Of a stretch of DNA of 64,000 nt, positions 40,332 through 40,574 are shown in pieces. The position numbers and the translations under genes were made by a program. The notes below the pieces were generated by a model. It did no database searches, was not told the DNA's origin, and was given only the letters and a program-made list of their open reading frames with translations. The DNA is from Dokdonella sp. (GTDB taxonomy: Bacteria > Pseudomonadota > Gammaproteobacteria > Xanthomonadales > Rhodanobacteraceae): positions 8,126 to 72,125 of the forward strand of contig NZ_DASSYD010000207.1 of NCBI RefSeq assembly GCF_035703485.1. The letters run 5' to 3'. Numbering within the stretch: position 1 is the first letter of the stretch; the number at the start of each line of letters is the position of its first letter.

Positions 40332-40574
40332 CAAAGCTCCCTACACCGGTGCCAGGAGTCTGGGCGGCAGAAATCTTCGGGCTGCGATTGTGCTCTCATC
40401 CATAGGCAGCGCCGCTCGTCGAGCTTGCATAGAACCACTATGCGCGCCCTCCGATCGACTCTGCCTATGGCGAACTCCCAATCCCGCTATGCAAAGATTC
40501 TGTCGCCCAGACTCCTACCGATCAGGTTCCAAGGGTCTCTCTCAGCCGATCTGCATCGGCACCCCCGCTTCAAT
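40332..40574 (-). promoter_or_regulatory. TPP (THI-box) riboswitch in the thiC leader, interrupted by a palindromic insert
   Basis: The minus-strand RNA reads AAGCGGGGGUGCCGAUGCAGAUCGGCUGAGAGAGACCCUUGGAACCUGAUCGGUA-[161 nt]-UGGCACCGGUGUAGGGAGCUU. The conserved GGGGUGC, CUGAGA, ACCUGAUC and GUAGGGA blocks are all present, with P1 as AAGC/GCUU. Confidence 0.75.
40355..40515. repeat. 161-bp palindromic (hairpin-forming) element inside the TPP riboswitch
   Basis: The ends ggagtctgggcggcagaaatctt ... aagattctgtcgcccagactcc are reverse complements. Internal pairs include ccataggcag/ctgcctatgg and gcatag..ctatgc. Confidence 0.8.

Follow-up and report, generated by a model that had tools for sequence, protein, structure and literature searches.

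A transposon-derived hairpin of 161 nucleotides in loop L5 of a Dokdonella thiC riboswitch

The thiamine pyrophosphate (TPP) riboswitch (THI-box, RF00059), known from the thiM and thiC leaders of E. coli, is built from helices P1-P5 and carries the conserved stretches CUGAGA, ACCCUU and CCUG...GUAGGGA. Its loop L5 is normally a UNRN tetraloop, which in solved aptamers makes A-minor and ribose-zipper contacts with P3 on docking there (PMC3764141); the strongly bound state of the aptamer is characterised by this docking (PMC4775224). The site at which the family is known to vary in length is P3/P3a, not L5. In a 64-kb stretch of Dokdonella DNA (64,000 nucleotides (nt), hereafter the window), we found on the minus strand a TPP aptamer with the same helices and motifs and the same site before thiC, but with the L5 tetraloop replaced by a 161-nt hairpin and the 5' side of P5 shorter by one nt. 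We regard it as close to certain that this segment is a MITE (a miniature transposable element with inverted repeats at its ends) of an IS1182-family insertion sequence and that it lies in L5.

Ribosomal RNA accommodates additional hairpins at the ends of its peripheral helices, as intervening sequences and expansion segments, some of which are excised by RNase III while function is kept. The host RNA considered here is, by contrast, a small ligand-sensing mRNA leader, in which any such processing would be hypothetical. MITEPye1 of Paracoccus yeei resembles the present element in being short, non-coding and intergenic, with IS1182-type terminal repeats, a long stem-loop and short flanking repeats (PMC11578231). 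It differs in sequence and host group, and the window copy is embedded in a structured regulatory RNA instead of plain spacer, with degenerate flanking repeats and no partner transposase in the window. The BOX element of the pneumococcal trp leader is likewise a small repeat that is co-transcribed in a riboswitch leader and folds independently, and regulation apparently survives it (PMC3049150); however, BOX sits between two complete T-box riboswitches, whereas the MITE interrupts a single aptamer at its tertiary-contact loop. Full-text literature searches turned up no published case of a riboswitch aptamer with a MITE in it, an absence in those searches that is not proof of novelty. Each part, the TPP riboswitch and the IS1182-family MITE, is known in itself.

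Read on the minus strand, positions 40333-40571 consist of GAAGCGGGGGUGCCGAUGCAGAUCGGCUGAGAGAGACCCUUGGAACCUGAUCGGUA, then 161 nt, then UGGCACCGGUGUAGGGAGCUU. The 5' part can be divided as GAAGC-GGGGGUGCC-GAUGCAGAUC-GGCUGAGAGAGACCCUUGGAACCUGAUCGGUA, after which the 161-nt segment runs from 40515 down to 40355 and UGGCACCGGUGUAGGGAGCUU completes the aptamer; a split aptamer before thiC, interrupted by exactly this segment, had been described in a first-pass annotation of the window made from its letters. The ligand-pocket nucleotides are present in CUGAGA, CCUG and (U)GUAGG, and include U39-A43, U59, G60, G78 and A80 as listed in PMC3764141. The conserved C77 is a U in the window, as it also is in three MITE-free relatives (L001, L133 and L144), and from CACCGGUGUAGGGAGCUU onward the 3' half matches the MITE-free relatives fully. 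The location upstream of a thiamine biosynthesis gene, thiC, is that of a TPP riboswitch.

At the RF00059 gathering threshold (54.3 bits), Rfam reported no TPP riboswitch in the 64-kb window. In E-value mode, the interrupted aptamer scored 32.9 bits, with the 5' half only aligned, and its position below the threshold is due to the 161-nt insert; the natural MITE-free alleles score 63.6-71.0 bits with the same model, which supplies natural versions lacking the insert for the comparison with and without it that the first-pass annotation had proposed. A custom covariance model, R1, was built from six MITE-free Dokdonella aptamers and scores the relatives at 66-104 bits. It gave 54.3 bits on the window, covering the 5' half and the first bases of the insert only. 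The flanking UA and the first bases of the MITE (40506-40518, minus strand) form GUAGGAGUCU, which resembles the true 3' strand GUAGGGAGCUU, and both models consequently call a short, pseudo-complete aptamer that ends inside the MITE. In principle, CCUG-AUCGG-UAGG could form an alternative hairpin.

We compared the thiC leaders of thirteen distinct relatives. The aptamer was found to be uninterrupted, with a 6-nt L5, in six lineages, so that the empty sites anticipated for an insertion do exist. The loops and Rfam TPP scores are UUUGCA in L001-L004 (64.3 bits), GUUGCA in L126/L127 (71.0 bits), UUAGCA in L133 (63.6 bits), UUGGUA in L141-L143 (69.9 bits) and UUAGUA in L144 (CCGG-UUAGUA-CCGG, 69.7 bits), all of which lack the MITE. 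UNRN-type loops (UAGC, UUGC, UGGU and UAGU) are contained in them. When MITE-free aptamers were aligned to RF00059, the point homologous to the insertion fell in the P5 loop columns and not in P3, as had been proposed for the insert at first reading. In both L144, a close relative (PepQ 88% identical), and L133, the tetranucleotide UUAG stands exactly at the insertion point.

The loop is also variable in relatives with no MITE in their aptamers. In at least three Dokdonella lineages, L005/L140, L128-L131 and L132 (D. soli), L5 has been expanded independently to 18-27 nt that form small hairpins, and the remainder of the aptamer is unchanged. These expansions lower the Rfam score to 50-56 bits, and two of them (L005, 54.0 bits; L132, 50.1 bits) fall under the gathering threshold, so routine annotation would miss them. 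Since three lineages do without the tetraloop while the aptamer is otherwise unchanged, L5 seems to behave as an expansion site in Dokdonella and the L5-P3 contact seems to be dispensable in the genus. The 18-nt loop of L005 was considered as a deletion remnant of the MITE on account of a likeness to its right end (CGCCCA..UCC.GGCA), but this received no support, with 381 of 2000 shuffles scoring as well. For L128 and L132, the similarity of the expanded loops to the MITE was not significant.

The 161-nt segment starts with GGAGUCUGGGCG and ends with CGCCCAGACUCC, which are complementary at 12 of 12 positions, in agreement with the perfect reverse-complement ends noted at first reading, and the arms of the full inverted repeat (40354-40372 and 40498-40516) are 19 nt long with 95% complementarity. 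A scan of species-representative genomes with GGAGTCTGGGCGNCAGAA returned at least 120 matching stretches, mostly in Burkholderiales and some in Lysobacterales. Many of those listed are located at the ends of contigs, which is typical of multi-copy repeats. Among the matches listed, inverted pairs comprised 16 short elements (ends 61-258 bp apart) and 6 long ones (ends ~1,540-1,575 bp apart). The long elements contain one open reading frame (ORF) of 445 amino acids (aa) with DDE_Tnp_1 and DUF772 domains, whose match to the NCBIfam model of IS1182-family transposases reaches 364.6 bits (cut-off 270), and the terminal 18 nt of the MITE are identical, 18 of 18, to the ends of these 1.54-1.58-kb transposase-encoding elements. 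Interiors homologous to that of the MITE were found in L112, a Lysobacterales metagenome-assembled genome (81% identity over 119 nt), in L119, a short form of 76 bp on the chromosome of a gammaproteobacterium, and in L087, of which an end fragment only is present.

The listed copies are flanked by CTA at the left in 20 of 22 cases and by TAG at the right in 18 of 22, indicating that the family inserts at CTAG-like sites. For IS1182-family elements and their MITEs, 4-bp direct repeats have been reported (PMC3281130, PMC11578231). The flanks seen here are compatible with a CTAG target, for which a 2-bp TA and a 4-bp CTAG duplication look alike in sequence; with the flanking tetranucleotides taken as the target duplication, the core element would be 40356-40514. 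These tetranucleotides are CCAG and CTAC on the plus strand of the window, and their degeneracy indicates that the insertion is not fresh. At the right-hand TA/TAG flank, the A has changed independently to G in the window (40353, minus strand) and to C (position 2878) in the second carrier, L139, described below, and the left flank is the same in both. The change at the right may be a chance event, or it might eliminate a rival pairing register at the foot of the MITE stem.

The element meets the usual description of a MITE in its small size and lack of coding capacity, since its 161 nt contain mechanical ORFs only, which differ as proteins between the window and L139, and no conserved small ORF was found. 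A transposase homologue was found neither in the window nor in the Lysobacterales loci. These features, the IS1182-family ends, the homologous copies and the lack of a transposase of its own, identify the element as a MITE of an IS1182-family insertion sequence and bear out the earlier view of it as an inserted palindromic element. We found no further copy in the 64-kb window by blastn at word size 7 or by a search for the terminal repeat with one mismatch. The first-pass annotation had also proposed that the element would be the genome's third type of hairpin repeat; two other types do occur in the window, but the present element is single-copy there, so the proposal cannot be proved from the window. 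A metagenome scan for parallel insertions with GAACCTGATN{3,12}GGAGTCTGGGCG gave 5 matches, all by chance, with neither aptamer nor element.

Folding of the 245-nt aptamer together with its insert (40332-40576) gave -127.2 kcal/mol, compared with a shuffle mean of -89.7 (z = -8.4), and none of 200 shuffles was as stable, so the fold exceeds what chance would give. The minimum-energy fold retains P1, P2, P3, P4 and P5, and the insert is predicted to form a coaxial extension of P5, with a three-nt bulge, GGC, between P5 and the new helix. The MITE alone folds at -95.2 kcal/mol with 63 pairs, and a consensus fold of the copies in the window, L139 and L112 has 65 pairs. In the ensemble of the full leader, 61.9 pairs are expected within the MITE and 0.00 to outside sequence, and enforcing the native aptamer helices takes 9.5 kcal/mol with the MITE versus 7.5 without it. 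Because the MITE fold is self-contained, the hairpin should form once it is transcribed and should hold both strands of P5 together.

A second carrier, L139 (GCA_016721015.1), carries this element too, with identical position and orientation; its ThiC is 97.4% identical and its PepQ 79% identical to those of the window. The two carriers share the left junction GAUCGGUAG, which has one C fewer than in all MITE-free relatives, and this shared deletion together with the common orientation makes independent insertions unlikely. The first-pass annotation had named conservation of the segment in relatives as a finding that would speak against an insertion. Such conservation was found in one relative, L139, but the insertion reading stands, since the empty sites and transposon ends indicate arrival by insertion and L139 indicates later persistence or spread.

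The two carriers are well diverged at four-fold degenerate sites, which differ at 95 of 297 positions in thiC (32%) and at 80 of 179 in pepQ (45%). Along the leader, differences amount to 14/44 in the promoter region, 10/59 in the aptamer 5' half (mostly in distal P3, with pairing preserved), 12/161 in the MITE (with no indels), 1/23 in the aptamer 3' half and 22/101 in the expression platform. Ten of the MITE changes lie in the outer 63 nt and two in the central 98 nt (positions 43-140), both of the latter being G-C/G-U exchanges. At face value, synonymous sites have evolved ~4 times faster than the MITE, suggesting constraint on the element. The thiC four-fold distances are star-like, at ~29-34% for every pair among the window, L139, L144, L001 and L005; PepQ groups the window with the MITE-free L144; and the flanks form a mosaic, L139 being like L144 upstream and the window being like L144 in P3 and in some of the platform. 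Together, these patterns make recombination among the lineages likely, and the MITE-bearing allele may have moved between lineages fairly recently, with the invariant flanking aptamer as homology. Purifying selection or recent lateral exchange could each account for the low divergence of the MITE, and two copies cannot separate them.

The remainder of the leader was examined for control signals. A putative thiC promoter, placed solely by blocks conserved among relatives upstream of P1, would put the MITE within the transcribed leader. A promoter and terminator scan of the thiC leader gave no match, the sigma-70 consensus included. Between the end of P1 and the thiC start codon lie 105 nt, with an expression platform that contains the conserved block CGUCCGCUUUUCUG, whose possible pairing partner is either the region of the Shine-Dalgarno sequence and AUG (CAGAAAGCAGGAUGAUCCGAUG) or the P1/P2 5' strand GAAGCGG. 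In alignments of the leaders, an internal hairpin of the platform covaries between relatives, and folding predicts a sequestering helix that covers the Shine-Dalgarno sequence and AUG of thiC. The alternatives open to CGUCCGCUUUUCUG would be the usual layout of a translational OFF switch, and the MITE does not touch the platform.

We propose that a non-autonomous IS1182-family MITE inserted into a TA-containing tetranucleotide of the L5 tetraloop of the Dokdonella thiC riboswitch, a target that reads UUAG in empty-site relatives. The RNA of the MITE would pair only with itself, forming a hairpin of ~65 bp stacked on P5 that rejoins the aptamer halves, so that P1-P5, the pyrimidine pocket (CUGAGA) and the pyrophosphate pocket (CCUG...GUAGG) could then assemble as in MITE-free relatives, the UNRN tetraloop that docks into P3 being the part lost. 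The RNA would still sense TPP, probably with lower affinity, and thiC would be repressed by sequestration of its Shine-Dalgarno sequence and start codon, with the MITE as a tolerated passenger. We put the probability of this whole explanation, retained function included, at roughly 0.6; the position and identity of the element, its empty sites, orthologous persistence and self-contained fold are observations, and the ligand response and translational mechanism are the parts that we infer. An interrupted riboswitch in two diverged genomes, with thiC intact, is not strongly harmful, and its carriage in both species suggests that the switch can do without a loop contact thought to help closure. 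The evidence from sequence and folding leans to tolerance, with a switch that probably still responds to TPP, although less sensitively.

Several points weigh against this explanation. Since the tightly bound state of the TPP aptamers studied so far includes docking of L5 onto P3 (PMC4775224, PMC3764141), affinity could have dropped severely. In both MITE-bearing alleles, the 5' strand of P5 is GAUCGG and not GAUCCGG, and the missing C leaves an extra unpaired G beside the pyrophosphate pocket; in L139, the variable J3-2 linker has also lost 2 nt. Neither the Rfam model nor R1 yielded an alignment across the insert. Two carriers only were found, the degenerate flanks of the window copy do not establish a clean target duplication, and if the low divergence reflects recent exchange, it could say little about long-term tolerance. 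The insertion may instead have disabled the riboswitch, which, lacking the L5-P3 contact and having a shorter P5, would have no useful TPP binding, so that thiC would be constitutive or in the default state of its platform and the allele would persist because deregulation is nearly neutral. We consider this unlikely, but a serious alternative. It accords with the loss of the A-minor and ribose-zipper contacts (PMC3764141) that define the strongly bound state (PMC4775224), with the sequence losses in P5 and J3-2 and with an Rfam score of just 32.9 bits, and a recent spread of the allele would have left little time for decay. However, the ligand-contacting nucleotides and the platform blocks have been kept in two carriers that are 32% apart at four-fold sites, the changes in P3 preserve pairing, and the three lineages that have lost the tetraloop from an otherwise invariant aptamer argue that the contact is dispensable in the genus.

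Another alternative is co-option, in which the MITE would be a functional component of the leader that is under purifying selection and gives thiC a further level of control, with its hairpin serving as an RNase III site, a protein-binding site or a substitute tertiary contact. Its low divergence and lack of indels, compared with thiC four-fold sites and the platform, would fit such a role, as would the central 98 nt, where both changes turn G-C into G-U and unpaired positions are conserved too, and the outer stems, which are needed for transposition and yet are more diverged than the interior, the reverse of what is expected of an active MITE. We find co-option improbable all the same: there are two orthologous copies only, recent lateral exchange or gene conversion gives the same pattern and is in keeping with the mosaic flanks and star-like thiC distances, the MITE matches no Rfam family and has no conserved ORF, and the paralogue in L112 is merely 81% identical. 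It is doubtful, too, that the MITE is a domesticated riboswitch domain, whether as an RNase III site that yields a two-piece aptamer, as a dock for a protein or small RNA, or as a replacement for the L5-P3 contact; a weaker related reading is that the L5-P3 contact is dispensable in vivo in Dokdonella and L5 is a natural expansion site. That the segment is an outgrowth of P5 native to this lineage, comparable to the L5 hairpins of 18-27 nt in other Dokdonella, might be entertained because L5 varies in length in the genus and the segment is conserved in L139. This is contradicted by 18-nt ends identical to those of transposase-encoding IS1182-family elements in unrelated genomes and by homologous copies at unrelated loci (L112 and L119), and the small L5 hairpins have no significant similarity to the segment, which makes the idea very improbable. 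An assembly artefact, with a repeat misjoined into the thiC leader, is conceivable in sources that are probably metagenome-assembled genomes, given that this repeat family is often met at contig ends, but the same junctions occur with 12 private substitutions in the independent assembly GCA_016721015.1 and the two aptamer halves flank the element exactly, so we give an artefact almost no credence.

The features of the locus are collected in Table 1.

Table 1. Features of the thiC locus in the window and L5 expansions in relatives
Feature	Coordinates	Strand	Evidence or content
161-nt MITE in L5	40355..40515	-	palindromic ends, IS1182-family ends, fold, orthologue in L139
Aptamer 5' half	40516..40571	-	sequence, partial Rfam match, custom model R1; P1 5' strand GAAGC, P2, P3 GCCGAU-GCAG-AUCGGC (40560-40545), J3-2 CUGAGA (40545-40540), ACCCUU, P4 5' strand CCUG, AU, P5 5' strand CGGU, then A
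Aptamer 3' half	40333..40354	-	sequence; UGGC-ACCG (P5 3' strand), GUG (J5-4), UAGG (P4 3' strand), GA, GCUU(U) (P1 3' strand)
Expression platform	40229..40332	-	conserved leader blocks and predicted fold
Putative thiC promoter (-35-like CTGGCT 40609-40604, -10-like TTCAAT 40585-40580)	40580..40609	-	conservation upstream of P1
thiC coding sequence (phosphomethylpyrimidine synthase, 623 aa)	38357..40228	-	gene under putative riboswitch control; Pfam
pepQ (Xaa-Pro dipeptidase), divergent from thiC	40679..42019	+	Pfam PepQ_N and Peptidase_M24
L5 expansions in thiC riboswitches of relatives	L005 2898-2915; L140; L128-L131 ~1398-1418; L132 ~1368-1394		

The thiC gene is intact, and its product matches ThiC_Rad_SAM in Pfam (618 bits, E = 9e-186) together with the ThiC-associated domain; its closest homologues are Dokdonella (Rhodanobacteraceae) proteins with 95-97% identity, and the protein P0144 equals it. 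A mechanical ORF at 38357-40438 (minus strand) extends thiC through the leader into the MITE, giving 693 aa from a GTG. In the relative L126 (1501-3426), the deposited ThiC, P0003, has 641 aa and begins 16 codons early, and because the final bases of the Rfam TPP match (L126 1363-1455) fall within this extension, its start was probably mis-called.

The intergenic region between pepQ and thiC is 450 bp long in the window, where pepQ bounds it. The same gene arrangement occurs in relatives, with a spacer of 312-313 bp without the MITE and of 470 bp in the MITE-bearing L139. In L001-L004, which have identical ThiC, the pepQ-thiC spacers are 763, 1802, 1392 and 961 bp, respectively (2237-2820, 1198-2820, 1608-2820 and 2039-2820), and they differ because of arrays of palindromes like repetitive extragenic palindromic sequences (CTACGCTCAGCGCGAACGG / CCGTTCGCCCTGAGCGTAG; CGAAGTCGAAGGGTG...GAGACGCTTCGACTTCG) that vary in copy number. 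The spacer of L002 also carries a GIY-YIG ORF.

Two other kinds of hairpin repeat were seen in the window. Long palindromes at 6088-6179 and 25339-25544 are made of tandem GGGGAGT heptamers that face their complement, one arm pair having 40 nt at 100% complementarity. Two copies of a MITE-like element with ~34-nt inverted ends (TTAAGGCAACGCTGATCAAGTGGCGCAATCGTCA), which is unrelated to the element in the thiC leader, lie at 26222-26445 and 33568-33848. A tRNA gene at 53653-53726 (minus strand, 74.6 bits) was the sole Rfam match in the window at gathering score.

Riboswitch aptamers are usually regarded as compact and tightly constrained, with the L5-P3 contact as part of closure on the ligand. 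The thiC leader described here is a natural case in which L5 has been swapped for a 161-nt transposon hairpin in two diverged species, alongside smaller expansions of the same loop in three lineages. Covariance-model annotation misses riboswitches that are interrupted in this way, and thiC would here be annotated as unregulated. If the switch is still responsive to thiamine, the L5-P3 contact would be dispensable in vivo, L5 would be a candidate insertion point for engineered fusions, and mobile elements would be able to remodel regulatory RNAs without destroying them.

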